DNA from: Candidatus Rariloculaceae bacterium
GTDB taxonomy: Bacteria > Pseudomonadota > Gammaproteobacteria > Steroidobacterales > Rariloculaceae
DNA length: 64,000 nt
NCBI GenBank assembly: GCA_965237785.1
Contig: OZ250159.1
Coordinates: forward strand, 1,099,656 to 1,163,655
Direction: 5' to 3'
Shown here: in pieces, positions 17,481 to 43,321 of the stretch
Numbering within the stretch: the stretch's first letter is position 1
Layout: the number at the start of each line of letters is the position of its first letter
Made by a program: the position numbers and the translations under genes
Notes under the pieces: model-generated
What the model was told of the DNA's origin: nothing
Seen by the model: the letters and a program-made list of their open reading frames with translations, nothing else
Databases searched by the model: none

Positions 17481-17534
17481 TCCGCAGTTCTTGCAAAGCT
17501 GCGACCGTGGGCGCGTTCGGACAGCACTTGCGGT

Positions 17535-20060: not shown

Positions 20061-20062
20061 GG

Positions 20063-22566: not shown

Positions 22567-22576
22567 CGGTCGGTAG

Positions 22577-22993: not shown

Positions 22994-23182
22994 ATGGCGC
23001 CTGCGTTCGGTGCGACCCGATCGGTGGTTGTAGTCGTTAGGGTCCGAGTCAGTCCGGCTTTGCCTGATCATCCTCTTCATAGCGGCGAAGATAACACAAT
23101 CCATGCCCGCTTCGACGACGCAGGCTGACAACGCGTCCTGGGCGTATAATCGCGCTCGCATCAACTGGAGGGTATCCGTTCC

Positions 23183-24105: not shown

Positions 24106-24348
24106 ATGAGTAGTGTCGAAGACCAAGTCAGAGCGATTATCGCTGAACAGCTCGGCGTCAAAGCGGACGAAATCAAGAACGACGCGTCGTTTGTTGACGA
24201 TCTGGGAGCGGATTCGCTGGATACCGTCGAGCTGGTCATGGCTTTAGAGGAAGAATTCGAGACCGAGATTCCCGACGAGGAAGCCGAGAAGATCACCACG
24301 GTCCAACATGCGATCGACTACGTCAACGCGAGCAAGAGTGCCCCGTAG
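24106..24348 (+). CDS. acpP: Acyl carrier protein
   Basis: 80 aa with the [20 protein letters not shown] phosphopantetheine-attachment motif. Confidence 0.95.
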
Positions 24349-25704: not shown

Positions 25705-25705
25705 C

Positions 25706-25837
25706 CGAAATTCTGTTCGGATCTGGCCCGAAACGGACGCGAGCTACATCGACCGCACCTCCGGCGAGCGCCTGCACCGCACCGAGTGGCACCGGGCGGT
25801 TTCGTTCCAGCCGGGATTAATCGATATGCACGAGAAT
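25706..25837 (+). pseudogene. ssb (single-stranded DNA-binding protein) fragment, left arm of a palindrome
   Basis: Translation ...ETDASYIDRTSGERLHRTEWHRAVSFQPGLIDMHEN resembles the SSB OB-fold core (...TGER.EKTEWHRVV.F). It starts right after the fabF stop and has no start codon. Confidence 0.5.
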
Positions 25838-25838
25838 C

Positions 25839-26006
25839 ATTTTCAAGCATGCCAAGTAAGCGTGGCTGGAAACTGACCACCCGGTGCCACTCGGTCTTCT
25901 CGACCCGCTCGCCGGTGTTGCGGTCGACGAAGCTCTCGTCGGTGGCGATGGAGAGGTTCGCGATCCTTCCGCCGCTGGCCAGGTGGTTTACGGTTATGTC
26001 TGCACT
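25839..26006 (-). pseudogene. ssb fragment, right arm of the palindrome
   Basis: Translation ...ASGGRIANLSIATDESFVDRNTGERVEKTEWHRVVSFQPRLLGMLEN. It has no start codon and the N-terminal part is degenerate. Confidence 0.55.
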
Positions 26007-26138
26007 TTACCGCCTGAGACCGAATGAGACGACATAAACCGCCAATAATCATACATGTATAGCGATTATCCTTCAGTTTGGCCGACAATGACCGTCGGGA
26101 GATACCCTGGAATTTGATTTCTCGTGTTGACTATTTCG

Positions 26139-26166
26139 TTGACATTCTTTGTGTTTTGGCTATCAT
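26139..26166 (+). promoter_or_regulatory. Sigma70-like promoter of the integrase gene
   Basis: TTGACA (26139-26144), a 16-nt spacer, then TATCAT (26161-26166). The integrase ATG lies only 7 nt after the -10 element, so the transcript may be leaderless. Confidence 0.45.
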
Positions 26167-26173
26167 TTCGGCC

Positions 26174-27421
26174 ATGAATTTGCGCACGAAAAAACGAGTG
26201 GCCAAGGTTCGCCTCACGCTCACCAAACGCTCCGTCGAGTCCCTTGCGCCGTCCGCAGGACCCTGGATCGCCTGGGACGACAAGCTCACGGGCTTCGGCG
26301 TCAGGGTGCAACCCTCGGGCACCAAGTCCTTCCTGATCAACTACCGGGCGAACGGGGGTGGACGGTATTCTCCCAACCGCCGACTGGTCATTGGGCGCTT
26401 CGGGAGACTCACCGCCGCCGAGGCCCGCAGGACGGCCCAGTCGCTGTTGGGCCGGGTGGCGGCGGGAGAAGACCCCGCCGCGGAGCGGGCCGAAGCGAGA
26501 GGCCTCCCCACGCTGGGAGAAGCCTTCGAGGACTACATGGCCGTGAACCCGAACCGCTCGGCGAATACCAACAAGGTCTACCGGCAGAATCTCCGGGTGA
26601 ATCTCTCCGACTGGGTGAACCGGCCACTGAACGCCATTTCCCGCCGGGACGTGGAGGCGCGCTTTCATCGCATCACCGAAAGACACGGATGGGCGGGGGC
26701 GAACCAGACGAATTCAATGCTGCGATCCATCTACCGCCGCCCGTGCGTGGATCACGAGGGACTGAAAAACCCGGTGGAGTTGTGGCTGGCCGCGGGCGGA
26801 AAGTTTCACCCTCACAGGAGACGAAGAATCTCCTCTCCCGCCGAAGTGCTACCCCGGTGGTGCGCGGGGATCGAGGCGGTGCCGATGCCCGAACCGGTCA
26901 GGGACATTCTCTGGATCGGGGTGTACACCGGGATGCGATTGGGCGAGGTGAAGTCGCTCCGATGGGAGCGGGTGGATCTCGAGAAACGGATCCTGCGGGT
27001 GGAGGAGACCAAGACGGGCGAGGTGCTGGAGCTGCCGATCACGGACCAACTGGAGGCGGTGTTCAGTCGGCGCCTCGCCGAAGCCGAAGGTTCAGGCGAA
27101 CCGGTGACCGGCTGGCTGTTTGCTTCTGCCAAGAGCGCCTCGGGGCACCTGGAGGACCTGTTCAAGTTCTATGCGCCGATTGGCCGGGTCGCCGGCACGA
27201 AATTCTGGTTCCACGGGCTGAGGAACAGTTTCATCTCCGTTGCGGAGCGCGAACTCCTGCTGCCGAGATCGCTGGTCAAGCGGCTGGTGAATCATGCGCG
27301 CGGCAGCGACGTCACCGAGGGGTACGCGGCGGACTGGACGGTGGAGCAGTTGCGGGAACCGGCGCAGCGGGTCGCGGACCGGATCGACATCCTTCGCGGG
27401 CTGCCCGAACGTTCCAGATGA
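26174..27421 (+). CDS. int: Tyrosine-type site-specific integrase with DUF4102 arm-binding N-terminal domain
   Basis: The N-terminus LTKRSVESL...WDDKLTGFGVRVQPSGTKSFLINYR is the P4-like/DUF4102 pattern. The catalytic region has GMRLGEV, HGLRNSF and the terminal ...TEGYA tyrosine. Confidence 0.9.
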   Translation: MNLRTKKRVAKVRLTLTKRSVESLAPSAGPWIAWDDKLTGFGVRVQPSGTKSFLINYRANGGGRYSPNRRLVIGRFGRLTAAEARRTAQSLLGRVAAGEDPAAERAEARGLPTLGEAFEDYMAVNPNRSANTNKVYRQNLRVNLSDWVNRPLNAISRRDVEARFHRITERHGWAGANQTNSMLRSIYRRPCVDHEGLKNPVELWLAAGGKFHPHRRRRISSPAEVLPRWCAGIEAVPMPEPVRDILWIGVYTGMRLGEVKSLRWERVDLEKRILRVEETKTGEVLELPITDQLEAVFSRRLAEAEGSGEPVTGWLFASAKSASGHLEDLFKFYAPIGRVAGTKFWFHGLRNSFISVAERELLLPRSLVKRLVNHARGSDVTEGYAADWTVEQLREPAQRVADRIDILRGLPERSR

Positions 27422-27440
27422 CTTGAGCGGATTTCGCGGA

Positions 27441-27689
27441 TCAGACCAGCAGCAACCGCACCAGGATCGCAACGTTCAGCGCCGCCACCAAGCCGAGCAC
27501 CCACTTGATCGCGCCCAACTCGGCTCGCTGCGCGCCCATTTCCGTGCGCAGGGCGGCGATGTCGTCCTTCGTTGCAAGGTCGCCCTGACCGGCCCGAACG
27601 ATCCTTGCAACGGCCTCGGCCTGGGGCTGTTCGAAGCCGGCGGCCTGCAGCTCCTTCGCGGCGCTCAATGTATCGAATGCGGCAGCCAT
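27441..27689 (-). CDS. DUF1640-like small coiled-coil protein with C-terminal TM helix
   Basis: 82 aa. FDTLSAAKELQAAGFEQPQAEAVARIV...DLATKDDIAALRTEM...IKWVLGLVAALNVAILV matches my recollection of DUF1640. Confidence 0.55.
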   Translation of the reverse strand: MAAAFDTLSAAKELQAAGFEQPQAEAVARIVRAGQGDLATKDDIAALRTEMGAQRAELGAIKWVLGLVAALNVAILVRLLLV

Positions 27690-28235
27690 GCGGGAATTAT
27701 ACTCCCAATGCGATGGCGACGGGACGGGGATGTTGAGAGCAAAAAAGAACTGTCCGCCTTATAGCACAAGGGTTGTCCGGTCCCCTCGATCTTTATCTTG
27801 GTGAGAAAACTGGTTGCAGGTCCTGTGGATTTGGTGGGAGAAAGGCACGCGAGTGGTGTGTCGGGCGAACTGGGGGAGTATAGCCGGTGGCGGCCGAGAG
27901 TCGCCGGACGCTCAGACGAGCCGCTGCTGCCGATGCCCGTCCTGGGCGAGATCCAGGTACGCGGCCCGGATCAGCGCCCGAATGAGCTGGGATTGACTCG
28001 GCGGCGGCAAGCCGAACCGGGCGGTCTGGTTCGCCTTGTGCTCGAGAAGCCGGGGTTTCCCAAGATGCTCATGACGGCTGAAGCGCGCAGTCGGAATGCC
28101 TGGTTCCGGAAATTCCCCAACAACGCGGAAACGGTCCGAAAATGCTCGCGCAATTCGGTGCGCACCACGGCGATTCTCCGGAGAACCGCACCATAACCTG
28201 CTGAAATAAATGAACTAAGTTCGAACCAATTTTCG

Positions 28236-28260
28236 AGCGTATATGAAAATGATATACGCT
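28236..28260. repeat. Perfect 9-bp-stem hairpin
   Basis: agcgtatat-gaaaatg-atatacgct, an AT-rich hairpin in a region without convincing genes. Confidence 0.8.
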
Positions 28261-28330
28261 GTCACTGCCAGAGCATTCAGCTTTTCCCAAGGCTCCGGCA
28301 CCCGTTTTTGGCGGGCCGCAGGTGGCTCCA

Positions 28331-28360
28331 GCGTAGCCGAGCGTAGTCAGGCGTAGCCAA
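28331..28360. repeat. Three tandem 10-bp direct repeats
   Basis: gcgtagccga gcgtagtcag gcgtagccaa, with a period of exactly 10 bp. Confidence 0.85.
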
Positions 28361-28635
28361 CGGTATCTTCTGCCCTCTTGGGCACCGGGGTGCGGTCGGT
28401 GTGTAAGTCTTGACGTCCGCCAGGACGTTGACTGAAATGGCGTTTTCGACGAACCGCTGTTGACAGGCTCACGGGGGTATTCTGCAAGGCAAAGCCCAAG
28501 CGGCGCATGAGCGGGATCAGGTCGATGAGGATCTTGGGATTTTGCAGTTCCGCGACCGCATGAATGACAATCCTGGCATGGGCCTGGTGACATCACGGGA
28601 TGGCGATTTCAACGAATCCGCCAAGACGCAAATGG

Positions 28636-29290
28636 GCACAGGAGGTGCCGAATCGCCGAATACGGTCAGCGGGCCATTCGCACAAGGGCAACGGAAACGG
28701 CTCGATCAGCTTAGCATCGGGCGGGGTCGTTGAAGCCGCGGGGTCGATGTTCGCATTCGCAATTACGCGGCAGTCGACAGAAGAGCCGGTGCACAGGGTA
28801 TCGAGGCAATATCAGGGGCGGGGCGCTCGTAGGGTAACGGCTGCGTCGCGATCACGGGAGTTGACGCTGTAGAAGCGGCAGTGGCGTGCGCGGAAATTTG
28901 CGGCAAGGCCGTCGTGGAACAGGCGATTCGCCAGCGACGGTCACCGTGCGGGCATTCGATTGTCGCGGTGTGCATTCCCGGCGCGTGCGGCAGACGGTTG
29001 GTGTCAATCGACGGGTGACGCGGTGACAACAACGCTCAAGTCTCGGGAACCCAACGGGATACCTCGGACAAGGCGTATGCGCAGTTGACGATGCGGCGGC
29101 AAGGTCGATAATCGCTATCACGACCGTCATGAACCAGGCGACGTGCCAGACGGCGGTCCCCGTGCCGGCATTCGGTTATGGTGGTGCGTATTTTCCGGCC
29201 GGGCGAGAGTCTGTTGGCGTCAATCGGCGCGCGACGAATTGTGGACCGCTGCGAAGTTGGCGAATAGGGTAACCGGGCAAATGACAATTT
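28636..29290. repeat. Degenerate long direct repeats (~224-bp period)
   Basis: Two clear units, 28860-29083 and 29084-~29290, each begin with gttgacg. They share a core ccag.cg.cggtc.ccgtgc.ggcattcg...gttgg.gtcaatcg at about 70 percent identity by eye. A weaker third copy of the core lies at ~28664-28690, plus a related gcattcgcaattacgcgg at ~28752. Confidence 0.6.
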
Positions 29291-30635
29291 GCATTCAGGC
29301 TTGGCGCAGGTGGCCGAAAAGAGCGTGATTGGAGAGCTTGTGAGGCTGAGGGATCACGTTGTTGACTTAGCGCATTTCGCCGACGAGCGGATGTTCGCGG
29401 AGATGTCCGAGGGCATTCCCCTTATCGTCGAGAGCGCTGAGGAACTGGATGAAGCCGGCCGGCAGTTGTTTGAAGCCGGGGAGTTTCGCGCCAGCACGAT
29501 CATCAAAGGGCTCGCGGAGGAAGAGGCGGCGAAAGTGCTGATACTTCTGGACTCGGTGCGGTGCCCACCGGATCCCAAGTCGAAGAAGAAGTGCTTGAGG
29601 GGTTTCTACCAACACTTGGCGAAGCGCGTCTATTCAGCGGTGAACTCGCTCCCCAACATCTTGTCATTCGGCGAATTGTCCGAATTCGTAGAGTACGAGT
29701 GCGAAACGTTCTATCTGGATGGTCCCCGCGGCGTGGATTGGATTTTCACGAACGCTATCACTACCGAAAGGGAGAACAAGATGTACGTGGACTATGTCCG
29801 CGATATCACTGAGCCGAAAGGCAAGTACAATTGGAGCGTGCCACAGGTTCTCCCGCCGCTTGTCGGAACCTATCAACACCCCCCGGTCGTGCGTCTTGCT
29901 CGTGCCCTTTGTGATGCCGGAGCAAGTTCTGCGCCGGGGCTCGCGTGTATCGCGGGCCTGTGGCGAGGGTTTCGTCCAGAGAGTGGGACGAGTCGTGCAG
30001 ATCTGAGGTGCGTAATTGAACGGACGCTAGAACGCCTTGATAAAGAGCACATCGGTGCGATTAATCAGGTAGCAGCGAGTCTGATTCTCTCAGAATGGTC
30101 GTTCCCGTTGTGGCCGCTCAACTTGGTCAAGAGCAATTCCCGGGGCGGCTCTTTGGAGGAATTGCAGGCAAAGCGAAGGAGCGCCATCGAGCGGATTGAG
30201 AAGATCGAAGCGAGAAGGGAGCCGCGGCCAGCGATAACGCGTGTCAAGGTGGAGGCCATGAGCAACGCGCACGATGCCTGGCGGAAGGAGGTCGCGGAAC
30301 GAACAGCGACCAGAGACTCGAGCGCCGGCGAAAAGCTGAAGCCGAGGTCGTTGGCTGACTTGGCGGCGGAGCGGGACTTGCCCTCCTACATGAGAATGAA
30401 GGAGATGTTCGTGGAGCTGAGCGATCACGAGCGGACGGTGCTGTTGGCCTTAGCGTGGTTCACCCGCGACGCGGTTGCCGATTGGCCAAAGGCATATGCC
30501 AAAGCGACGGCCAGTTACCCCACGCTGGACCAGATGTATCAGCTCGGTCTGGGGCGGAATTGGTTGGCGGGACTAAACCGTTGGGAGGAATCACCATCGA
30601 GGTTCGAACTGGGACGGTGGCATAGTATTATCTGA
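29289..30635 (+). CDS. AbiV-like HEPN-domain protein with long uncharacterised C-terminal half
   Basis: The N-terminal part IVESAEELDEAGRQLFEAGEFRASTIIKGLAEEEAAKVLILLD resembles the AbiV/HEPN_AbiV helix pair. It is followed by an RX4H motif (LRGFYQH; R104, H109 in ORF numbering). The start is uncertain: TTG at 29289, or GTG at 29310 or 29325. Confidence 0.6.
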   Translation: MHSGLAQVAEKSVIGELVRLRDHVVDLAHFADERMFAEMSEGIPLIVESAEELDEAGRQLFEAGEFRASTIIKGLAEEEAAKVLILLDSVRCPPDPKSKKKCLRGFYQHLAKRVYSAVNSLPNILSFGELSEFVEYECETFYLDGPRGVDWIFTNAITTERENKMYVDYVRDITEPKGKYNWSVPQVLPPLVGTYQHPPVVRLARALCDAGASSAPGLACIAGLWRGFRPESGTSRADLRCVIERTLERLDKEHIGAINQVAASLILSEWSFPLWPLNLVKSNSRGGSLEELQAKRRSAIERIEKIEARREPRPAITRVKVEAMSNAHDAWRKEVAERTATRDSSAGEKLKPRSLADLAAERDLPSYMRMKEMFVELSDHERTVLLALAWFTRDAVADWPKAYAKATASYPTLDQMYQLGLGRNWLAGLNRWEESPSRFELGRWHSII

Positions 30636-30671
30636 ATTGGCGAGTGAGACTGTGCTGGGAAGGGGGCAACG

Positions 30672-31268
30672 GTGTCGAATCTCGACAAGCTGAAAAGATC
30701 GGCGCCGATTGCTTCGCAGGACTCGAAGAAATCGGCAAATGGCGGTCGACAGCGGATCGGTCCGGCGGGAACGCGGTTATCAGGCAGCGCGATACGCTCG
30801 GATTCAGCCGATGCTTCCTTTCGCCATCATTGGATCTTGTGGGCAGGGCCAGTTGCGATGCTGCTGGCGGCTTTGCTCCCGTGGCCGTATGGCTACTACA
30901 ACTTCCTCAGGTTTTGCGTCTGTGGGGCGGCGGCTTTTCTGGCGTATCAGCAATGGACTCATGACGATGCCGCAAGCAAGTGGGTCGTCGTGCTCGTCGC
31001 AATCGCGCTCTTGTACAACCCGTTTGTACCCGTTTATCTGACTCGCGAGATCTGGACCGTGCTGAACGTCGGCACGGCGATAGCCCTGGTTGGACACTAC
31101 CGCTCATTGCGGCGACTGCTCCGACAGACCGTCGAGAACTCACCGCAGATCGGGCGCACACTCTCGAGGCGGACGCCGGTCCGGGCAGGGAAGTCGCGCG
31201 CTTTCTCCCTGCTCTCAGCAGTCGGTAGGGGCATCCGCGTGTTCAAACAGCGCGACGGCGGAGGATGA
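30672..31268 (+). CDS. Membrane protein, DUF6804-like core
   Basis: A polar N-terminal ~55 aa is followed by TM helices with YYNFLRFCVCGAAAFLAY...VAIALLYNPFVPVYLTREIWTVLNV, the pattern I associate with DUF6804. GTG start 37 nt after the preceding gene. Confidence 0.5.
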   Translation: MSNLDKLKRSAPIASQDSKKSANGGRQRIGPAGTRLSGSAIRSDSADASFRHHWILWAGPVAMLLAALLPWPYGYYNFLRFCVCGAAAFLAYQQWTHDDAASKWVVVLVAIALLYNPFVPVYLTREIWTVLNVGTAIALVGHYRSLRRLLRQTVENSPQIGRTLSRRTPVRAGKSRAFSLLSAVGRGIRVFKQRDGGG

Positions 31269-32074
31269 GCGGCGCAGACGAAGTCCGTAGGCTGGCGCGT
31301 GAGGAGGCAGAACGTGGCGTTGCCGACGCGCAGGTCGCTCTCGGGGTGATGTACCTCACCGCGCAGGGGGTTGAGCGGGACGCGGAGAAGGCACTCTCTT
31401 GGCTCCTGAAGGCTGCGGATCAGTCCGACACCGATGCACTGTATAACTTGGGCATCGTATTTGACACCGGGTTCTTCGGAATGCGACCGCCAGACGCAAT
31501 TGAGGCGCTGAGTTGGTTCCGCCGGGCTGCGAGCCAAGGACATGATGGAGCCAAATACAACCTCGGTGTTGCCTACGCGGAGGGAAAGGGCGTGACTCCG
31601 GATCGTGCGCGAGCCATCGAGTGGTGGCGGGAGGCTGCGGAAGCGGGCAATGCTCGTGCTCAGTACAACCTCGGTGTGAGCTACAGCAACGGCGAAGGGG
31701 TTGCCCGCGACGACGTGCAAGCCGTGGCGTGGTGGGAGAAGGCCGCGATGCCGCCCAACCCTGCCGCGAAACCTGAAAAAGCATACTACTCGGCGCCTAG
31801 TGGAATAATCGTCAGGAAGGGGCTCGGCGACGCTGGACGGGGGGAGCACGGCTATGCCGATGCCCAGTACCACTTGGCCCGCATGTATGCATTGGGCCAA
31901 GGGGTGGACCGCGACAACGCGCGATCGGCAGAATGGCTGCGGCGCGCGGCTGAACAGGGACATAGTGGTGCACGGCCTGCGCTATCAGGTAGATTCTGGC
32001 GGCGCGCTCTTTTGGCGGGGGGAGTTGTCTTGGTTACCGTGCTAATCCTGACGGTCTTCGTGGCGGCCAATTGA
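31265..32074 (+). CDS. Sel1-repeat (SLR) protein with C-terminal TM anchor
   Basis: About five Sel1 repeats (AQVALGVMY..G.GV.RD...A..W..KAA..G...A.YNLG). The C-terminal helix is ALLAGGVVLVTVLILTVFVAA. Its start overlaps the previous stop (ATGA). Confidence 0.8.
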   Translation: MSGADEVRRLAREEAERGVADAQVALGVMYLTAQGVERDAEKALSWLLKAADQSDTDALYNLGIVFDTGFFGMRPPDAIEALSWFRRAASQGHDGAKYNLGVAYAEGKGVTPDRARAIEWWREAAEAGNARAQYNLGVSYSNGEGVARDDVQAVAWWEKAAMPPNPAAKPEKAYYSAPSGIIVRKGLGDAGRGEHGYADAQYHLARMYALGQGVDRDNARSAEWLRRAAEQGHSGARPALSGRFWRRALLAGGVVLVTVLILTVFVAAN

Positions 32075-32272
32075 GTGTTGTAACCGATCGGATGCATCCT
32101 GTTGTTGGGTTTGGTATGCAAAGCGCCAGGAAGCGCTGGATGACGAAGTACAAGGCCGAGTGCTCAATTGTGCTTACCAGCGCGGTCATTCGCGGGAGAG
32201 TGCGCTGGATGTCGTGGGCGTTGAACTATGTGACAACGCGCTGACGAGATTACAGCGCTTGCATGAATTGCC

Positions 32273-32449
32273 ATGATCGACTGGTTGATTTCTGTTCTCT
32301 CCACCATCTGGGAATGGAGAATGCTGTTGCCGTTTGAGGGCTGGCGCGCTATCTATGGGATGTGGTTCTTTTTGTTGCTCTTGGCTCTTTTCGTCGGTGT
32401 TCCCGTCTGGGCTCTCATCTCGATCAGGCGTTTTTTCAGGTCGCGCTGA
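32273..32449 (+). CDS. Small hydrophobic protein (58 aa)
   Basis: MIDWLISVLSTIWEW...GMWFFLLLLALFVGVPVWALISIRRFF. Its ATG overlaps the stop of an upstream open frame (ATGA). It lies in a lower-GC segment. Not in the ORF track because it is under 60 aa. Confidence 0.3.
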   Translation: MIDWLISVLSTIWEWRMLLPFEGWRAIYGMWFFLLLLALFVGVPVWALISIRRFFRSR

Positions 32450-32492
32450 TCTGCCAACTTAGGTATGTAATCCCAATTTGAAAAGAAATCGG

Positions 32493-33026
32493 ATGAACAA
32501 GCTGCTAATCGGAATTACCACTCTGGCCGCGCCGATCATGGTTGGATGTCAGGATGCGGAGAACTCAGACCATGTTGCGATACTTTTGCGAACTTTCGAC
32601 GCGGTATGTATCAGCACGCGTCTTGACGAAAGTATCTTTCACGCCCAAATGAGCTTGTTCGGCGACACCATGGAGGTGCCAGCGGATGAGCTACGTATGA
32701 TGTCCCCAACCAACATTGCAGGCTATTACTTGACAGACGTTGAAGGGCAGACTTTTGTCGCGGTGATGGGGCTGACACAAGCCGACGACATATCGTCGAG
32801 AAATTGCGGGGTCTTGACACGATCCGTTGGATTCGAGGAAGCAGTAGCGCTGGTTGCAGAAAATTTCCCGGTTGAGAAGTTGGATGAATTTAGCCAAGGA
32901 ATCAGTCGCTATGTGACTTTCCAAGGGTACTTGGCAGGATACCCTGACAACATGGCCATTTCGGTACAGGGCGGCGAGCGAGTCACGGGCGTCTATCTAT
33001 ACGAGTTACCCTCAGCTGGGCGATGA
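32493..33026 (+). CDS. Lipoprotein, unknown function
   Basis: Signal peptide with lipobox MNKLLIGITTLAAPIMVG/C. Lower GC than the surroundings. Confidence 0.55.
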   Translation: MNKLLIGITTLAAPIMVGCQDAENSDHVAILLRTFDAVCISTRLDESIFHAQMSLFGDTMEVPADELRMMSPTNIAGYYLTDVEGQTFVAVMGLTQADDISSRNCGVLTRSVGFEEAVALVAENFPVEKLDEFSQGISRYVTFQGYLAGYPDNMAISVQGGERVTGVYLYELPSAGR

Positions 33027-33380
33027 CGCATTGGACTCAATTTGAATTGCTTTGTTGATAACGCTGGCTGCAGTCTTCGCTATTGCGAAAAGATGCGCGC
33101 CGGCGAGGCGGGGAACCGGGCGTGCTCCAATACCGTCGATGCTCAAACAAGTTGCCGGCCAGAGGCAGCTATTTTCCGCCCTGATCGGCTGGCTGGCAGG
33201 GGTTTCGCAAAGATTGTTTGGCCGTAGGCTTCCGAGTTTCGGTTTTGTGTAGATTTGCGTTGGTTGACGCTCACCTACCGTGGTACGCAGTGAATCTCGC
33301 ACGACTTGCGCCCTTCCGCGGAACCATGCGCGGCAATGACGGTACCGGCGTCGCCCTGAAGCGCTTGAAGGGAAATTGGC

Positions 33381-33908
33381 GTGGCAGTGCTCATCGAAGG
33401 GCTTTCTGTGGTGATTCGCATCGATGCGATAAAGGCCAGGTATCCCGGTGGGTGGGAGGCGTTTGCCGCGAACGCGCCCAAGGCCAATTGTTGCTGGAAC
33501 GGGGAACTCGCCCGCGTGGGCTTCATGGCGCCATGGGACACGAAGGCTTTTGTCCAGTCCCTCGAGAGCCTTGGATTGATCCACCTGGTCGACGGGATGG
33601 CGCGCGACATGGTGGTGGTGGATCAGTTTTAGGGTCCGGCGACGCCGTGCGACTGGGTTGAAGGCGGGCACGTGGACCTGGAAGACGACCCAGAGCGCCG
33701 GGTGCTGGCTGTCCGTCTCAAGGGCAGCAGGCAGCAACTGGTGTACACGCCCGATGAGTGGACGTTCGAAAGGTCCCTGTCGCGCTCGTTCGGCTTCGCG
33801 CCCGAGGAACACGTGGACAGGAGCCTGACGTTCGTGCGTCACGAGAACGGTCTGGACGTCTACCTGAACGCGGTCACGAGCACCGAGGTCTGCGTTGGGG
33901 GCTTATAG
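33381..33908 (+). pseudogene. Conserved hypothetical gene interrupted by an in-frame TAG
   Basis: ORFs 33381..33632 and 33672..33908 are in the same frame and are separated only by the TAG at 33630-33632 (...MVVVDQF*GPATPCDWVEGGHVDLEDDP...). The sequence reads as one continuous protein. Confidence 0.5.
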
Positions 33909-33925
33909 CGGATAATGACCAAACA

Positions 33926-34278
33926 TCAGTCCGAATCGTCCGCCGACGCCTTTATCAACGGCGCGGGGTCGTAATGTTCCGCCAGCTTGCGGGCTAGCGC
34001 AACGATCAGAGCCCTTGCCGCGTCGTCGTCTCGAATCACGGAGAACACCGCCCAATTCAGGATGAGTATCCAGCCCGTCTCACGACTGGTGGCGATCAGT
34101 CGGTTGAGATCGTCCTCGTCGAGCCTTTCATCAGCTCTTTCTTCTTCAGGTTTTTCCACTGTTTGCGTTTTTTGGGGGTGTGCCAAGGACGGCACGCGCG
34201 ATGTTCTCCGGTGTGTCTGGGATGGGTTCCGCCATCCGTTTCTCGATGGGGGCCGCCTCTGTGTTTCGGCTGACTCAT
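33926..34278 (-). pseudogene. Frameshifted small gene(s) of unknown function
   Basis: ATG at 34278 (MSQPKHRGG). The protein-like continuations IEKRMAEPIPDTPENIARAVLGTPPK and ...LDEDDLNRLIATSRETGWILILNWAVF... lie in the two other frames. The frame changes coincide with homopolymer runs. Confidence 0.3.
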
Positions 34279-34327
34279 GCCCGTACTCTACCCATGTCGA
34301 GTGAATCAGTCTGACTCGATTCTATGA

Positions 34328-34352
34328 CCCGCCGCTGCTACGGCGGGTTTTT
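34328..34352 (+). terminator. Rho-independent terminator-like hairpin
   Basis: cccgccg-ctgcta-cggcggg followed by ttttt on the + strand. It sits between two minus-strand genes, so which transcript it ends is unclear. Confidence 0.45.
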
Positions 34353-34579
34353 CATTTCAAATTACGATAAGTCGGGCTTGGGATCACCCCATCGTCAACG
34401 GCGGTCTGGCGGTCAACCTGCCTGTCCTCTTCCTGAGTCTCCAGCACGTCGGCAATCCGCTTCAGGCTGATGGCGATGGAAGCCAGGCATTCGTCACGGG
34501 ATGGAAAACGGTTGTTCCGACGGCGAAATTCCTCTCCCGCCGCATCAATGTCTTCAAACAGCTTCGCGTTTCGTGCCAT
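34352..34579 (-). CDS. Small hypothetical protein (75 aa)
   Basis: ATG with an AGGGA ribosome-binding site ~9 nt upstream. Acidic, helical-looking sequence. No family recognised. Confidence 0.35.
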   Translation of the reverse strand: MARNAKLFEDIDAAGEEFRRRNNRFPSRDECLASIAISLKRIADVLETQEEDRQVDRQTAVDDGVIPSPTYRNLK

Positions 34580-34620
34580 AGGTCGGTCCCTGTCAAATCC
34601 TCATACTTCAATCGCTTGTG

Positions 34621-34850
34621 TTACATCCTCGGCACCATGTCGCCCATCTGTTCGATGGTATCCAGATCGCGGGCGTTGTGACCGCCCGCGAACTCGCGCA
34701 CATACCGATGGAGGTGTTTCTCGCTCATCGTGTGGTACGTACCCTTGTGACCCCGCTTCAGGAGTTACCAGAACGATTCTATCCCATTCGTGTGAGCCAT
34801 CCCAATGACGTACTCGCAGGCTGAGCGTGCTAGCGCTATCTGATGGCGCG
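34621..34850 (-). mobile_element. IS1595-family (ISXO2-like) transposase C-terminal remnant with internal stop
   Basis: Translation ...SACEYVIGMAHTNGIESFW*LLKRGHKGTYHTMSEKHLHRYVREFAGGHNARDLDTIEQM. HTNGIESFW..LKRG..G.YH..S.KHL.RY..EF is the DDE_Tnp_IS1595 C-terminal signature. The N-terminal two thirds are absent. Confidence 0.6.
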
Positions 34851-34928
34851 ATGCTCACGTTGTTTGATGGATTTTGGGTGGCGTCCTTGGCGACGGGCGG
34901 CGAAATGTCGGATGAACGTCGCCGTAAC

Positions 34929-35508
34929 TCATCTGATAATGCGTGGATTGACGTTCAGCCGTTCCAAGTACTCGTCGAACTCAGACCGATCTCGAGCCTC
35001 CAAGCACCGTTCCAGCATCGGCGCGTCGTCAGGACCCACCTCAAAGCCGACGCCCTCAAGCGGCTCTCCGAACACCTCCAGCCATCGTTCTTGAATGGGC
35101 CGCAAGGCGGAAAAATCGGTAATTGAATCGTCTCCAGCAGGTCCATGACTTCGCGATACAAGTCGGGAAAAAGCCGCTCGACCATTTGGGCGGCGATCTC
35201 GCTCTCGCCCGATATGCCGACCACATTAGCAAACATTCCGTCTCTCGGCTGCCCGGAGTCTTGTAGTACGCCTTGGAGTGTCCAACCGAACCATGGGTGC
35301 GGCTCATGGTGGCGCCATCGGCCAGATCGGACAGCAGGAACCCGTATTGGCTCCGGGCGCGGGGCGGGGGCGCGGACAGTGCCGTCGACGGGGAGTTGCC
35401 CTGACGAACGATGCTCAAGGCCGCTGTAGGGCGATATTGCGAGACCGCAAGGCTGCGATAGGAGTCATTTTCAGCCGATTTCGGCGATTTAGGGGAATGG
35501 CGGGGCAT
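34929..35508 (-). pseudogene. Frameshifted gene of unknown function downstream of the relaxase
   Basis: Three successive protein-like segments lie in three different frames: ...YGFLLSDLADGATMSRTHGSVGHSKAYY..., then MFANVVGISGESEIAAQMVERLFPDLYREVMDLLE, then ITDFSALRPIQERWLEVFGEPLEGVGFEVGPDDAPMLERCLEARDRSEFDEYLERLNVNPRIIR*. Confidence 0.3.
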
Positions 35509-35550
35509 CCCGGCGTCGACCTTCGGATTCCCTTGTCCGGCCCCGGATCC

Positions 35551-38500
35551 TCACATTTCCATGTCGAGATCCATGTCCATCTCGACCGGCTCGTTGGCCC
35601 GGTCGTTCTCGGCAACGGGCGCGGGCGACTTCGGGGCGGGGTCCGGGCTGGCCTTGCCCGCACTGGCCTCGCGTACCGTCCCGGGCTCGGCCTGTTTGAC
35701 AGTTTCAAGCTCCGCGCCCCACTCGGCGACTTGGCGGTCCGGCTTGCGCTCAAGCTGCGCGCCGCGGCCCGGCGAGGGTTCGATCTCCTCCCGGGCGTAG
35801 CGCCCGGCGGCCTGCGCCACCTTCGCCGGGTCCTTGGCGTCCCCCGCGTCCCTGAAAATGGCCTTCACCGCGGCGGTGTCCGCCGCCGCGTCCAGCGCCG
35901 ATATTCTCTCGCCGCTGGCGCGCTCAAGGTGATCGGAGAGCTTTCGCCCGTCGTCGGTGATCAGCTCCGCCCGGAATCGCGCCCGGCTGATGGCCACATA
36001 AAGGGCCTTCTGGTTGACCAGCGCCCGGTTCCCCGACTCCATCGCCGCGATGATCGTGTCCACGGTGCGGCCCTGGAAGGAATGGATCGTGGTGGCCCAG
36101 GCATGGTCAAGGAACCGCAAGCTCGGGTGTCCTTCCCCCAGCGTGATGGTTGGCCCGTCCTCGAGTTCGAATCGCACCTCGTCTTCCTCGATCCCCGCGA
36201 CGCGGGCCATCTGACCGTTGACCAGTCCCGCGTCCCGGTCGTTCCGGGTGAACCGCACCCGGTCGCCGGCACGCAGGTCCAGGCGGCCTGAGCGGTACGA
36301 GTCCACGCCGCCCTTCTTGCCCGCGATCTCCCAGGGCCGCCACCGCACCTTGGCGCCTTTCGAACCCTCAAGAATCACTGCGTGACGGTCCCGGTCGATT
36401 CCAGCGACGGTTCTCTCGTCGCCTTTCTCGACCCCCAGCCGCTTGTACTTGCGGTTGAAGATCACCGTGTCGCCTTCCGCGTAGCTCGAATGCAGCCCAG
36501 CCTCCGCGCAAGTGAGGCCGCGGGAAAGGAGTTTCGTACCCGTGCGCGCCGGGCCGTGGATTTCGCCTTCGGCGGCAAGTTCGTTTCGGATGATACGATT
36601 GATCGAGTCGCGCAGCGCCCGGGTGGGCGCGATGACACCGGTATTGTCCCTATCTGAGTGAGACAGCGCCAGCCACCGCTGCGCGGCTTCGTCCGCGAGT
36701 TTTTCAGACGCGATTTCCGTGACGTTGTCCCCGAGCTTCTTGAACGCCGCCTTGATTTCCCCCTCAAGCGTGGACTTCACCGCGGACTTCAGTCTTGAAT
36801 CTTTCTGCCTGAGTATTTCGTCCAGCACGGCGGTCTGCATCCCCGCCTTCATCAACTGCCCGAAGGGCCTGCCGGCATCCACCCCGTCAAGCTGCTTCTC
36901 GTCCCCGACCAGCACCACCCTTGGCAACCGCATGGCCGTGGCGGCCTTGAGCAGGCCCCTCATTTGTTCGGTTGAGGCCAGCGACGCCTCGTCCACCACC
37001 ACCACGGTCTTACTCACCTTGCGCCGCAGCCCCTTCAGTCCCTTTGCGGAAACTCGCCCCTCGATCAGTCCGGTGTTTCGGGCTAGGAAGCGCTGCAGGG
37101 TTTCGGTCGGGATACCGGCTTCCTCCCGCAGCGTTTTGGCAGCAGATGCAGACGGGGCCAGCCCCTTCAGCCTGTAACCCTTGCGTTGGGAGAGATCCCG
37201 GAAGCGTTTCAGCATCGTGGTCTTTCCGGTGCCGGCGTAACCTTGGATGCCGATCACCCGATCCCTGCCGGAAAGCACCGACTTGACCGCCTCCTTCTGG
37301 CCGCGGTTCAATCGCCCCTTGCGAAGGCTGCTCTCGGCGACCCAGTTCCTCATCATCCTCGGACCCTTGCCCCGGCCCGCGCGCATCAGGGATATTGTCT
37401 CCGATTCCCTGGCAAGTGCTCTATCGGTCGTCCAGCCGCTGGCGCGGTGCATACCGTTGGCACGGTGCAAACCGCCCTTCCGTTCAAGGTCCAGAATGGC
37501 TTTCTCGGCCGATTCCACCGTGACGGCGCCGGGCTCTTTCCCCAGCACCGCCGTCAGCAGCGCCGCATGAGTGAACACCGACTGGCGCTCGCTCAGGTGC
37601 TTCACGGCCCATTGGGCGGCCTGTGTGGCCGAGTAGTCCGGATTGGCGAAGAGATCCTGCTGAGAGAGGGCGTCGCCTGTCTTCGCCACTGATCGGCGGG
37701 TCCGGGAAACCACCGCCTTGGCCGAAAAATCCAGTTCGCTCGCCTGCCGCGACCACTGCCGGCGCAGGGCGGACTTGTCCACGTCACGTTTGTGCGCGCG
37801 CGTCACCAGCGCGGCGCGGTCGGCCAGTCGGGCGTTGTCTCCGGGAGCACCCATGCCGCGCGCCTTCATCGCCGCCTCGATCTCGGCCCGTCTCGTGGAG
37901 AACGCCTTGATGACCTCGCGCGAGACCCCCTCGATCTCGAACCGCCCGTCCGCGTGGGTTTTCTCGATCCCGTACCCGAGCCCTTCAAGCCCCCGCGCCA
38001 GTTCCGAGCGGTAGATCGCCCCGATGGCGATCACGCCCCGGTACACCCGGTCGTTGATCATCGTTCTCCACTTGGAATCGTTTCCCTGAACCATGTTGAC
38101 GATCACCGCATGGGTGTGAAGCTGCGGGTCCAGATTCCGGGACGTGTCATGCCTAAAGGTGGCCGCCACCATCTTCTGGTTGCCCTTGCGCACCATCGTC
38201 CGGGTGACGGGATCCATGACGCGGGTCTCGACGGCGCGGTGCTCGATCCAGTCGAGCGTGCGCTTCACGGCGCGCGCGTGGGCCTTGACGATCCGGCGGT
38301 CCCCGCCCACCAGCGCGGCCAGAGAAACCGACTTCGGCGCGGACAGCGTGACGTCGATGCCCGGGCGGTGACGGATCGTGCCGTCGCGCTCCCGTTTCCC
38401 CAGCCTTCGCCCGTCCGGAACATGGCCTTCCAGCACCATCTGAAACGCTTCTGGCTCCACCGGTCCGGAGAGACCCATCGCTTCGGCGCCCTTGCCGCGC

Positions 38501-38619
38501 CAAGCGCTGGCCTCGCGGTGCAGGGCGTCGTCCTTGGCATAGTAGCCGTCTTTCTCGTAATAGCTGACGCCCTGGGCGGCGGAAGCGACTGTGCCGATGG
38601 AAGCTACCACGGATTGCAC
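35551..38619 (-). CDS. MobF-family conjugative relaxase (TrwC/TraI-like) fused to RecD-like helicase
   Basis: N-terminal YYEKDGYYAKDD...GKGAEAMGL and the histidine triad FRHDTSRNLDPQLHTHAVIVN mark the TrwC relaxase domain. It is followed by the AAA_30 Walker A GIQGYAGTGKTT and the helicase C-terminal motif TIHSFQGRTVD. Confidence 0.9.
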   Translation of the reverse strand: MQSVVASIGTVASAAQGVSYYEKDGYYAKDDALHREASAWRGKGAEAMGLSGPVEPEAFQMVLEGHVPDGRRLGKRERDGTIRHRPGIDVTLSAPKSVSLAALVGGDRRIVKAHARAVKRTLDWIEHRAVETRVMDPVTRTMVRKGNQKMVAATFRHDTSRNLDPQLHTHAVIVNMVQGNDSKWRTMINDRVYRGVIAIGAIYRSELARGLEGLGYGIEKTHADGRFEIEGVSREVIKAFSTRRAEIEAAMKARGMGAPGDNARLADRAALVTRAHKRDVDKSALRRQWSRQASELDFSAKAVVSRTRRSVAKTGDALSQQDLFANPDYSATQAAQWAVKHLSERQSVFTHAALLTAVLGKEPGAVTVESAEKAILDLERKGGLHRANGMHRASGWTTDRALARESETISLMRAGRGKGPRMMRNWVAESSLRKGRLNRGQKEAVKSVLSGRDRVIGIQGYAGTGKTTMLKRFRDLSQRKGYRLKGLAPSASAAKTLREEAGIPTETLQRFLARNTGLIEGRVSAKGLKGLRRKVSKTVVVVDEASLASTEQMRGLLKAATAMRLPRVVLVGDEKQLDGVDAGRPFGQLMKAGMQTAVLDEILRQKDSRLKSAVKSTLEGEIKAAFKKLGDNVTEIASEKLADEAAQRWLALSHSDRDNTGVIAPTRALRDSINRIIRNELAAEGEIHGPARTGTKLLSRGLTCAEAGLHSSYAEGDTVIFNRKYKRLGVEKGDERTVAGIDRDRHAVILEGSKGAKVRWRPWEIAGKKGGVDSYRSGRLDLRAGDRVRFTRNDRDAGLVNGQMARVAGIEEDEVRFELEDGPTITLGEGHPSLRFLDHAWATTIHSFQGRTVDTIIAAMESGNRALVNQKALYVAISRARFRAELITDDGRKLSDHLERASGERISALDAAADTAAVKAIFRDAGDAKDPAKVAQAAGRYAREEIEPSPGRGAQLERKPDRQVAEWGAELETVKQAEPGTVREASAGKASPDPAPKSPAPVAENDRANEPVEMDMDLDMEM

Positions 38620-38730
38620 TCTGCAAAGGGGCCGCCCGCGGCCACGCCGCCGTACCGGTCACCGGGATTGCTGCCCGCAGACGTATTGCCGCCCGCAATG
38701 GCCACTGCCGGGGTTCAATCCCGGTCCGTA

Positions 38731-38913
38731 ATGACGGACAATCCCGCCCCGATGAATGCCGGGCAGGACTTCCTCATCGGACTGGCGGGCTTGTGCCTTT
38801 GCGTATGGGCGCTGCTCGGCACGAACCGCTTCATGGTGCGCGGAATGCGCGCGGCGTGCGCAGGCTTGGGCGCGATCTTGCTCGTCACCGGGTTCATGTT
38901 CATGTACCGGTGA
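38731..38913 (+). CDS. Small two-TM membrane protein (60 aa)
   Basis: MTDNPAPMNAGQDFLIGLAGLCLCVWALLGTNRFMVRGMRAACAGLGAILLVTGFMFMYR. It forms the C-terminal end of a long spurious ORF. Only this part looks like a real protein. Confidence 0.35.
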   Translation: MTDNPAPMNAGQDFLIGLAGLCLCVWALLGTNRFMVRGMRAACAGLGAILLVTGFMFMYR

Positions 38914-39121
38914 GGGCGGTAAAATCCGTTCGCAATCGCCTTTCATGGCCCGAACGTAGCACCGCCGGAAACGGGTCCGCAACGGCTTTCAGGAGGCCGC
39001 TTGCGCCGTGTTGACTCCTTGTTGACCCGGCGTGTAGGACTGTGAGCAGAGCCTCGATTGCCCTGATAAAAATCCTTTTATTTACGGTATGTTACGAGCG
39101 TTCTCGCGCCGCGGCGGCGAT

Positions 39122-39433
39122 TTATTGGTCAGGATCGAGAAGCACGCTCGCAAGGGCTGGCCCTTTCCCCATGCTCGGCTCAACGCCGCTTACGCCTCGG
39201 CGCCGGCCAGGGCGTCGTCCAGCTCGCTCGCGCGCCGCGGGCGCCAGCCCGTCTTCTGGGAACGCATCGGCCAGATACGCGCAAATCGCCGCCGTCTCCG
39301 TTACCGCTACGCTCCGGTGGCGAAGCGCCGGCACCTTGCCCATGGGATTGATCGCGCGATACCGCGCCGACTTCATCTCCGACGTGTTTCCATCGCGGCC
39401 TTCACTAACCTTCCTCGTCTCCTGTTTCAACAT
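39122..39433 (-). pseudogene. Glutathione S-transferase fragment
   Basis: ...KSARYRAINPMGKVPALRHRSVAVTETAAICAYLADAFPEDGLAP is a GST N-terminal (thioredoxin-like) domain segment. The beginning is overlapped by parE and the C-terminal domain is not recognisable in frame. Confidence 0.45.
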
Positions 39434-39767
39434 GACGTATCGGGTCCATCGAGTCGTGCAACAGTCGGAGAACGTCAATCACGGGCCGCTCTTCTTGTCT
39501 GTCGACCCGGTACAGCACGAGGTGTCGGCCTTTCCGGCCCCTGCGCGCCACATTCACAATCATCAAGCCTTCCGCAATTTCATCCCGTTTTCGCGATCCG
39601 GGAACGTCCGGTCCCGCTGCAAGCGATTCGATCGCCCGCGTCAAGGTCTCGGCATATTGGCGCGCCTGTGCCTCCCCGAACCGTTCCGACGTCCAACGAA
39701 CAATGTTCTGGAAATCAACCTCGGCGGCGGTTGTCAGACGGATGCGCCAACCGCGACCGTCGGCCAT
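39405..39767 (-). CDS. parE: ParE/RelE-family toxin
   Basis: 120 aa. ...RIRLTTAAEVDFQNIVRWTSERFGEAQARQYAETL...HLVLYRVD...VIDVLRLLHDSMD is the typical ParE pattern. Its ATG overlaps the antitoxin stop (TGATG). Confidence 0.8.
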   Translation of the reverse strand: MADGRGWRIRLTTAAEVDFQNIVRWTSERFGEAQARQYAETLTRAIESLAAGPDVPGSRKRDEIAEGLMIVNVARRGRKGRHLVLYRVDRQEERPVIDVLRLLHDSMDPIRHVETGDEEG

Positions 39768-40069
39768 CAGGAGTTGTCGGTTTTGGGCGAACCGGGGCCG
39801 AGCGCCTCCGCGGTAAGCGCGGACAAGTCCTCGCGCAGCGCCTCCGCCGCGTCGAATGCACGATAGCGCCCCGCTGCGATATCGGCGATGCCGGCCTCCG
39901 CGGCCGTCCGCATGGCCTTCAGGCGGATATTCTCTTCCACATCCCGCCGCTCAACGAGCCTCAGACCCTCACGCATCACTTCACTGGCATTCTGATAACG
40001 GCCGGACGCGACCAGCCTTGCGACAAGGGACGCCTGATAATCCGAAAGGACAACATTACGCGTCGGCAT
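39767..40069 (-). CDS. parD: ParD-family (RHH/COG3609) antitoxin
   Basis: MPTRNVVLSDYQASLVARLVASGRYQNASEVMREGLRLVERRD. AAGGAG ribosome-binding site upstream of the ATG at 40069. Confidence 0.8.
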   Translation of the reverse strand: MPTRNVVLSDYQASLVARLVASGRYQNASEVMREGLRLVERRDVEENIRLKAMRTAAEAGIADIAAGRYRAFDAAEALREDLSALTAEALGPGSPKTDNS

Positions 40070-40090
40070 GACAAATTCTCCTTGGCGGAA

Positions 40091-40117
40091 CCCTATTGGC
40101 ATATTATGCCAATAGGG
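40091..40117. promoter_or_regulatory. 27-bp perfect palindrome, probable parDE operator
   Basis: ccctattggcata-t-tatgccaataggg (13-bp arms), 22 nt upstream of the parD ATG. Confidence 0.5.
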
Positions 40118-40284
40118 CCAGGATTGTCATACTTCAGTAGCGTCGATTCTGGAAATCGACGCCCTCGCGACGAACATCGGTGAGCGGGCTAGCGCCTGAC
40201 ACGCGGGTCTGCCATCCTTGTGCTTGCGTCCGGGTTCGATGGGCACGATGAACCATCGCGCCCGCAGAAGGGCAGTGGTGCAAA

Positions 40285-42985: not shown

Positions 42986-43314
42986 CCGTATCTGGACAAT
43001 TGACGCTGACAATCCCGGGCGAGCGTGCACTCTACCGGGCGTATATGCCCTTCATTCGTAACGGCGGGCTATTTGTGCGTACCGATCGCAGCTATGAACT
43101 GGGTGATGACGTATCGATCGAGCTCAATCTGATGGGCGCGGCAGAGCCGGTCCCGGTCTCGGGAAAGGTCATCTGGATTACGCCCAGGCGGGCGCAGGGC
43201 AAGCGGCCCGCGGGAATTGGAGTGCAGTTCAACGACAACGCGAGGTATCGCAGGGAAATCGAAGCGCAATTGACCGGGTTGCCGGGAAGCGACGAATTGA
43301 CGCACACGCTGTAA
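42982..43314 (+). CDS. pilZ: PilZ-domain protein
   Basis: 110 aa. LYRAYMPFIRNGGLFVRTD...GDDVSIEL...GKVIWITP...AGIGVQF. Conserved position after holB, as in Pseudomonas. Confidence 0.8.
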   Translation: MTVSGQLTLTIPGERALYRAYMPFIRNGGLFVRTDRSYELGDDVSIELNLMGAAEPVPVSGKVIWITPRRAQGKRPAGIGVQFNDNARYRREIEAQLTGLPGSDELTHTL

Positions 43315-43321
43315 CGCCCGG

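Follow-up and report, generated by a model that had tools for sequence, protein, structure and literature searches.

Which kind of DNA separates fabF from mltG in the chromosome of a Candidatus Rariloculaceae bacterium, and can it still move? We studied this question in a 64 kb stretch of the genome (GenBank assembly GCA_965237785.1, contig OZ250159.1; hereafter the window, to whose positions all coordinates refer), in which the fabF-mltG interval runs from 25705 to 40284. A first-pass annotation of the same DNA had seen in this interval an integrative mobilizable element (IME), or the eroded relic of an integrative and conjugative element (ICE) or integrated plasmid, that needs a helper conjugation system and sits exactly where pabC is expected. 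Our analysis indicates that the interval probably holds a horizontally acquired, partly decayed element of the IME type, possibly still mobilisable, in which a discrete insertion, a recombinase and a relaxase of its own are combined with the lack of any complete type IV secretion system (T4SS) or mating-pair formation (MPF) module, features by which IMEs are recognised.

An insertion between fabF and mltG

The interval is bordered by chromosomal genes on both sides, with tmk, holB and pilZ coming after mltG, and the end of fabF at 25704 and the start of mltG at 40285, as first annotated, are borne out by open reading frames (ORFs) with Pfam support:

23183-23953, + strand: fabG, left flank
24106-24348, + strand: acpP, left flank
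24463-25704, + strand: fabF, with the ketoacyl-synt N and C domains of Pfam and a TGA stop codon, syntenic in all relatives
40285-41322, + strand: mltG (YceG, E=1e-82), right chromosomal flank, syntenic in relatives

By its MltG, the species has its nearest representative in a Candidatus Rariloculaceae metagenome-assembled genome (MAG; 68-71% identical), followed by Woeseiaceae and unclassified Gammaproteobacteria MAGs; on this protein evidence the host is an uncultured marine, Candidatus Rariloculaceae-like gammaproteobacterium and no Pseudomonas. We compared the locus with five GTDB genomes (L003-L007) and two closer ENA contigs found by protein search (L017 and L018). mltG directly followed fabF in all seven (MltG 47-87% identical), and the spacer was short at each of the three depths of MltG identity that these relatives span (85-87%, 68-71% and 47-52%). 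In the two closest, L017 and L018, whose MltG is 85% and 87% identical to the window copy, the spacers measure 89 and 122 bp and the gene order, from a type II secretion system (T2SS) cluster through fabG-acpP-fabF to mltG, is the same as in the flanks of the window; L017 also carries tmk-holB-pilZ downstream, and the L018 contig stops shortly past mltG. The empty site, which the first-pass annotation had suggested looking for in related genomes, was thus found in seven of them. Judged against these relatives, the island is a real insertion of ~14.5 kb, and both flanking genes were left intact.

No pabC lies between fabF and mltG in any of the seven relatives, whose spacers are too short for a pabC gene, and no pabC/Aminotran_4-like ORF was present among the ORFs scanned in the interval, as the earlier reading had also noted, or elsewhere in the window. 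Moreover, fabD is not upstream of fabG in the window. A T2SS cluster (N, M, L, K, J, I and G; 18825-23164, - strand) abuts fabG where many gammaproteobacteria have fabD, and the same T2SS-fabG adjacency is seen in L003, L017 and L018. Since fabF and mltG adjoin each other in the relatives and fabD is not found upstream, the Pseudomonas order fabD-fabG-acpP-fabF-pabC-mltG, which had served as a gammaproteobacterial guide to this locus, is by this comparison not applicable to the lineage. Likewise, as seven relatives have fabF and mltG adjacent and no pabC, the island displaced nothing, pabC included, and the placement "exactly where pabC is expected" does not hold for a host that is not a Pseudomonas.

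Alignment with the empty sites of L017 and L018 confined the foreign DNA to ~25709 through ~40156-40190, narrower than the whole interval 25705-40284. The left boundary falls after TGACCG, at ~25708-25710, that is, 4-6 nt beyond the fabF stop codon, and the native spacer restarts between ~40156 and 40190, leaving the last ~95-130 nt ahead of mltG native. The reconstructed empty site joins fabF…TGACCG to …CATCGGTGAGCGGGCTAGCGCC…mltG. The two ends of the island are:

25705-25720, no strand: left junction, native TGACCG and then island DNA, with the inverted repeat CCGAA-ATTCTG-TTCGG across the junction
40130-40190, no strand: right end, a perfect 9-bp inverted repeat GCGTCGATT-CTGGA-AATCGACGC (40130-40152) and then the junction zone

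GC content varies from 0.52 to 0.68 within the island, and no Rfam match was found at the junctions (E≤1). Three short resemblances around the junctions were considered and set aside. The right copy of a TGACCG/TGAGCG repeat aligns with the native L018 spacer and is hence not island-borne; ATTCTG, which lies within short inverted repeats at both ends, is a mere 6-mer with a chance probability estimated at about 0.3; and the resemblance between the junctions and the L003-L007 spacers (nominal p 0.03-0.69) was non-significant after correction for multiple comparisons.

Integrase, relaxase and a candidate origin of transfer

The genes on which the assignment turns are an integrase at the left end and a relaxase towards the right, given here with the segments that accompany them:

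25733-25943, no strand: ssb fragment palindrome, two N-terminal pieces of ssb in imperfect inverted repeat
26177-27421, + strand: tyrosine integrase, intact, 414 aa, with Arm-DNA-bind_3 (former DUF4102) and Phage_integrase domains
27441-27689, - strand: gene for an 82-aa coiled-coil protein with a hydrophobic C-terminus, which travels with the integrase
35551-38619, - strand: MobF (TrwC-type) relaxase-helicase, intact, 1019-1022 aa, with TrwC, AAA_30 and UvrD_C_2 domains
38620-39150, - strand: region upstream of the relaxase, conserved only in the related locus L023, where it abuts a truncated ssb directly

The integrase ORF could also start at 26078 or 26114; homologues begin at the Met encoded at 26177, the probable start. 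All six catalytic residues, R275, K300, H367, R370, H394 and Y404, are invariant in an alignment of the family (A2). Homologues of the integrase are abundant (70-90% identical), and scans of IMG/VR gave no useful match for the integrase alignment or for the relaxase.

The relaxase matches TrwC (PF08751, E=1.5e-82) and AAA_30 (E=5e-52), and its best solved relative is TrwC of plasmid R388 (1OMH, E=5e-62). Alignment to 1OMH showed that the tyrosines corresponding to Y18 and Y26 and the HxDx…HxH histidine motif are kept, and with an HUH domain, two catalytic tyrosines, a histidine triad and a C-terminal SF1 helicase the protein is, on its predicted features, a relaxase of the MOBF class. Full-length homologues 81-89% identical at the amino acid level occur in other contexts; the best annotated matches are all on plasmids and at most 39% identical, and among the plasmid MobF genes that match best, several lie beside or overlap a gene annotated as type IV secretion DNA-binding (coupling-type). 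The scanned ORFs of the island, by contrast, gave no match to a T4SS or coupling-protein domain, a six-frame Pfam scan of its largest unannotated gap (32.05-35.56 kb) returned an IS1595 match only, and no T4SS-type Pfam match (VirB4-type ATPase, coupling protein, pilus or MPF protein) was found in eight related loci totalling ~170 kb. On these points the first-pass annotation was right: the DUF4102-type integrase, the MobF relaxase-helicase, ParDE, the IS1595 remnant and the ssb remnants that it listed were all recovered with Pfam, and the T4SS genes and coupling protein that it had reported as absent were found neither among the scanned ORFs nor in the six-frame scan of the gap.

Window segment 25864-27723, which comprises an ssb fragment, the integrase and the 82-aa gene, is 83-84% identical at the nucleotide level to contigs with quite different surroundings. 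Because this integrase module and the relaxase (81-89% at the amino acid level) recur so closely elsewhere, the island is, on these homologies and on its heterogeneous composition, of foreign origin.

Between the 82-aa gene and the cargo lies a stretch of conserved non-coding DNA, which contains the following elements and is bordered by the remains of a small gene:

27912-28055, - strand: remnant (3' part) of a small gene next to the block, with the N-terminal ~20 codons deleted relative to an intact 65-aa gene
28053-28750, + strand: conserved non-coding block, candidate origin of transfer (oriT), common to six related elements
28237-28259, + strand: inverted repeat GCGTATA…TATACGC within the block
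~28330-28365, + strand: three CGTAGyC repeats with a 10-nt period within the block
28382-28393, + strand: inverted repeat GCACC-GG-GGTGC, with the same arms as IR2 of R388
28398-28410, + strand: R388-like nic motif GGTGTGTAAGTCT, in the near-invariant core of the block
28413-28428, + strand: invariant hairpin ACGTCC-GCCA-GGACGT, in the block core

The block is 73-81% identical in nucleotide sequence in L019, L020, L021, L023, L024 and L025, and no other non-genic DNA is so widely shared in the family. A protein-coding reading, prompted by a 174-aa ORF called in the ENA assembly, was rejected: substitutions are distributed 69/77/75, with no codon periodicity, and the ORF is absent in L020. The arms of GCACC-GG-GGTGC are paired in all six sequences, two pairs having changed on both sides (covariation), and the degenerate nic motif has a single occurrence in the 64 kb, where 0.02 would be expected by chance. 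The 13-mer GGTGTGTAAGTCT matches the proximal arm and single-stranded stretch of R388 with one gap. The block has no Rfam match (E≤1) and no plasmid match at the DNA level (blastn, 72,556 plasmids). Given its conserved non-coding status, the R388-like repeat and motif, and a relaxase whose closest relative is R388 TrwC, we therefore propose the block as oriT, for which its conservation and its resemblance to R388 make it a good candidate. The nic substrate of R388 reads GCGCACCGAAAGGTGCGTATTGTCT/ATAGCC (PMC4814116; PMC4176350). A purine is required after the R388 nick (PMC4176350), whereas the base 3' of the proposed nick in the island is T.

The deletion in the small gene beside the block appears as a gap in the alignment of the region (A1) relative to L019 and L021, and comparison of the ORFs agrees. 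A ribbon-helix-helix identity for this gene, an impression by eye, was not retained, as the intact L021 protein has no Pfam match. A repeat of the same kind as that within the block, CTACGC with a 10-nt period (CGTAGyC on the other strand), also stands directly upstream of the integrase in L025 (~9815-9845) and L026 (~9830-9860), which suggests that one DNA-binding protein may act both at the block and upstream of the integrase. A DUF932 gene would be expected in a leading region, and in L020 the gene to the right of the block is DUF932.

Related elements, cargo and decay

Related loci were taken as contexts of integrase homologues (L019-L021) and of relaxase homologues (L022-L024). In L019-L021 a full-length ssb lies next to the integrase in divergent orientation; beyond it, L019 and L021 have Toprim_3/DUF7146 and YAcAr genes and L020 has unannotated genes. 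The same 82-aa gene follows the integrase in L019 and L020, its product being 88-93% identical there and having a weak, sub-cut-off CCDC90-like match. No T4SS or coupling protein was found within 10 kb of the relaxase homologues (L022-L024). By blastn, window 35355-39150 matches L023 4933-1123 at 84%, and L023 has a truncated ssb, with its cut at the codon that is also cut in the window copies, joined directly to the block upstream of the relaxase. When the ends of the window island are joined, the order of L023 is reproduced save for the ParDE/GST segment (GST, glutathione S-transferase), an arrangement that fits a circular intermediate. Homologues of the integrase and the relaxase co-occur on large contigs (560,805, 106,588 and 1,862,996 bp), and the island as a whole has no DNA relative among 72,556 plasmids (megablast and blastn).

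The homologous integrase of L025 starts 235 nt past the 3' end of a copy of a glycosyltransferase gene, so that, going by this contig, at least one relative shares the placement just past the 3' end of a protein-coding gene. The same contig, at 4334-11254, holds the glycosyltransferase gene together with a second copy of its 3' half (87% identical over 529 nt), and behind each stands an integrase of this family, one of the two 5'-truncated; the arrangement looks like two elements in tandem that have accreted at a single host gene, at its 3' end.

The two ssb pieces of the window were compared with full-length ssb (L019-L021) and truncated ssb (L023 and L026). The arms of the palindrome, 25733-25837 and 25839-25943, are 105 nt each and 72% complementary; the + strand copy spans about 25735-25838 and the - strand copy 25839 to about 26010, and both are cut at the same codon (~57, …DMLEN). 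A cut at …DMLEN together with the short palindrome GAGAAT-G/C-ATTCTC is seen in three elements, namely the window, L023 (~1120-1140) and L026 (~9790-9810). The DNA beyond the palindrome centre differs among the three, the mirrored arm being 105 nt in the window. The palindrome could be a recombination site, or an ancient palindrome trimmed differently in each element.

The remaining genes of the island are cargo, an addiction module and remnants:

29289-30635, + strand: HEPN_AbiV-like protein, 441-448 aa (PF18728, E=2.4e-5; 25 bits, below the 27.1-bit cut-off)
30672-31268, + strand: DUF6804 protein (PF20619, E=1.4e-23)
31265-32074, + strand: Sel1-repeat protein, 5 repeats (PF08238, E=3e-52)
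33381-33908, + strand: 180-aa gene, a pseudogene split by a single in-frame TAG (33630-33632)
about 34687-34824, - strand: IS1595 transposase remnant (PF12762, E=2.9e-11), covering only the C-terminal 46 of the 153 DDE_Tnp_IS1595 positions
39122-39478, - strand: N-terminal fragment of a GST, a pseudogene with GST_N_2, GST_N_3 and GST_N matches over only ~45 residues
39405-39767, - strand: ParE (PF05016, E=1e-13)
39767-40069/40102, - strand: ParD (PF03693, E=1.8e-10), with a start/stop overlap with ParE at 39767

ParDE, with its adjacent small antitoxin and toxin genes, is by gene content and arrangement a type II toxin-antitoxin pair. A defence function of the cargo was considered and not adopted, as PADLOC gave no convincing match for these genes, the sole one being a 20-bit PtuA match to the Sel1-repeat protein, below threshold, and the HEPN_AbiV match is under the Pfam cut-off. 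Both halves of the 180-aa pseudogene match one intact gene of L024 (78-82% amino acid identity). A sub-threshold Rfam match to the Burkholderia anti-hemB small RNA at 34278-34356 (+ strand; 22.8 bits against a gathering score of 49.5 bits, E=0.15), which falls where the island is decayed, is probably due to chance. Decayed genes in the island are the two ssb fragments, the small gene by the block, the TAG-split 180-aa gene, IS1595 and GST; the "many pseudogenes" of the first-pass annotation are thus confirmed, and further ones were added. Eukaryote-like repeat proteins occur both in the window island (Sel1) and in L022, where an 880-aa ankyrin-repeat protein (1914-4556) is encoded near the relaxase. 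Candidatus Rariloculaceae are sponge-associated bacteria.

A second assembly of the species is available as ENA contig L002 (ERZ26167216), which is 99.8% identical and holds the island at the same place. Identical MltG is found on these two contigs only, both with the island, which is fixed in the sampled material. There are zero single-nucleotide polymorphisms (SNPs) between the two copies of the island, and only the Sel1 gene sets them apart: in L002 it bears an IS21-family insertion accompanied by an indel. This element of ~3.7 kb (rve transposase and IstB-like ATPase) lies at L002 17231-19444, equivalent to window ~31278-31589. In the flanks, ~60 differences are gathered in three tracts (16672-17649, 43237-43732 and 49952-50359), a pattern that looks like patches of homologous recombination between strains. 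A 1-nt indel at 43240 alters the C-terminus of PilZ, which has 110 aa in the window and 93 aa in L002.

Alternative readings and known systems

On the reading that we favour, that of an IME-type element which may still be mobilisable, the integrase would have inserted the element, as a circle, beside the fabF 3' end, much as in the placement seen in L025, and the element would excise before transfer. The relaxase would then cut the block on its + strand, at or close to GGTGTGTAAGTCT/TGAC (28410/28411); the predicted nick would follow …GTAAGTCT on that strand, within 28375-28430. For transfer, the relaxase-DNA complex would use the coupling protein and T4SS of a co-resident conjugative element, the genes to the right of the proposed nic would enter the recipient first, and ParDE would stabilise the island in the meantime.

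Several observations count against this reading. No direct repeat links both junctions (repeat search, 9-nt seed), and the significant flanking direct repeats that go with an excisable element were not detected; a putative pair of attachment (att) sites, GGCGAGCGCCTG-CAC (25763-25777) and GGCTAGCGCCTGACAC (40187-40202), was rejected since p was ~0.10 and 22 of 123 control windows were as good. ARAGORN found neither a tRNA nor a tmRNA anywhere in the 64 kb, and together with the repeat and local-alignment tests this computational search agrees with the by-eye impression of the earlier reading that there was no tRNA target and no convincing direct repeat. There is no recognisable excisionase in the island, the 82-aa protein included; the databases contain neither an empty nor a circular form for this species, and there is no sign of current excision. 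As to the candidate oriT, the predicted single-strand fold places the proposed nic inside a stem and not 3' of a hairpin, and in one relative (contig_6) the block is ~75 kb away from the relaxase. The truncated small gene, the ssb scar, the lost backbone genes, the pseudogenes and the missing att repeats therefore make the present-day mobility of the island doubtful.

An immobile relic of a larger ICE or IME, from the family with ssb, toprim, YAcAr, DUF932 and MobF, which was left by internal and terminal deletions, has passed beyond excision and transfer and has integrase and relaxase ORFs that are simply yet to degrade, is a possible though rather improbable identity for the island, and differs from an element of the IME type mainly in present activity. 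It would account for the toprim, YAcAr and DUF932 backbone genes being absent from the window island, together with a full ssb, when relatives keep full ssb, Toprim_3/DUF7146 and YAcAr (and L020 has DUF932 past the block); for the distance in contig_6 (ERZ25069558), whose relaxase at 246.8 kb and integrase at 324 kb are ~75 kb apart against 8 kb in the window; and for the N-terminal truncation of the small gene, at least five pseudogenes or fragments, the lack of detected att repeats and an island that is fixed and identical in both assemblies. However, the integrase (414 aa) and the relaxase (1019 aa) have stayed full length, with their catalytic residues kept, while their neighbours decayed, and the core of the candidate oriT is intact. 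The joined ends, which match the order of L023 save for ParDE/GST, fit a circular intermediate better than random deletion, and with no T4SS in any related locus the "large ICE" ancestor is itself unproven.

It is very unlikely that a small MobF mobilizable plasmid with ParDE became integrated through an insertion sequence (IS) or illegitimate recombination, its own integrase not being used. Genes for ParDE and a MobF relaxase are typical of plasmids, the best annotated relaxase matches are all on plasmids, an IS1595 remnant lies inside the island, IS21 is active in the sister assembly and att repeats are lacking; but the island has no replication initiator and no match among the 72,556 plasmids (megablast, blastn), neither junction has an IS, homologues of the integrase and the relaxase share large chromosomal contigs, and the integrase stands at the island end beside the 3' end of a host gene, like that of L025. 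Finally, that the DNA is native and ancestral, and was deleted from the relatives, perhaps together with pabC, is effectively refuted: although just two assemblies of the species exist and both bear the island, the spacer is short in seven relatives across three divergence depths, the mobile-element genes have close homologues in unrelated contexts, the composition is heterogeneous, and none of these loci has a pabC between fabF and mltG. What remains of the first-pass interpretation is thus its core, an IME or eroded relic in need of a helper, in keeping with the integrase, the MobF relaxase, the decay and the lack of T4SS genes and coupling protein, and its framing around a pabC site has to be given up.

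An IME-type element of this composition resembles several known systems in part. R388 (IncW, MOBF) is closest in its TrwC relaxase domain (E=5e-62), with Y18/Y26, the histidine triad and a C-terminal helicase, and in its oriT, whose IR2 arms are those of GCACC..GGTGC and whose nic, GGTGCGTATTGTCT/AT, compares with GGTGTGTAAGTCT of the island. In contrast to R388, the island relaxase shares no more than 39% identity with plasmid relaxases and has no trwA or trwB (coupling protein) gene adjacent, its candidate nic is 7 kb from the relaxase gene with a different spacing from repeat to motif, and the island is chromosomal and integrase-borne, with no replicon. Islands with P4-type (arm-binding, DUF4102) integrases insert at the 3' ends of tRNA genes. 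With these the island shares the Arm-DNA-bind_3 and catalytic domains and an integrase at its edge that reads inward, directly downstream of the target gene, but its target is the spacer past fabF, with no tRNA and no duplicated target segment. ssb, toprim and DUF932 genes are typical of the backbones of conjugative elements. Like ICEs, the island has an integrase, a relaxase and a maintenance module, and its relatives carry ssb, toprim and DUF932; unlike them, neither the island nor the related loci examined (~170 kb) contain a VirB4-type ATPase, a coupling protein or pilus/MPF genes.

The nearest category is that of canonical IMEs, which are likewise small, with a tyrosine integrase, a canonical relaxase, no MPF genes, cargo and addiction genes and a presumed dependence on a helper. 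According to a 2017 review by Guédon et al., the relaxases of known canonical IMEs are of the MobP, MobQ, MobV or MobC type and in no case MobF or MobH, and none of the category had been described in Proteobacteria (PMC5704250). The island differs from them in its MobF relaxase and its gammaproteobacterial host. In genome surveys, chromosomal relaxases that have no T4SS beside them number in the hundreds (PMC3158045); an element of this type was therefore to be expected and is not a new kind.

Tentatively, and as a single joint reading, the island may belong to a widespread but undescribed family of IMEs with MobF relaxases, whose hosts would be uncultured marine and sponge-associated Gammaproteobacteria. 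Members of such a family would have no coupling protein or T4SS at all, and would carry an R388-like oriT block by a small regulator gene, upstream of the leading region. They might insert past the 3' ends of protein-coding genes and not at tRNAs, and might bear a cargo of eukaryote-like repeat proteins (Sel1, ankyrin). The ssb palindrome with its fixed codon (window, L023, L026) would, in such a family, perhaps mark a recombination site for accretion and rearrangement.

The island leaves the current understanding of mobile elements unchallenged. For this lineage it is corrective, in that gene-order expectations drawn from Pseudomonas do not carry over. It documents an integrative element with a MobF relaxase as its only transfer gene in a gammaproteobacterium, where the 2017 review knew none (PMC5704250), gives a concrete oriT candidate (28375-28430), and points to related elements in uncultured marine and sponge-associated bacteria with eukaryote-like repeat proteins.

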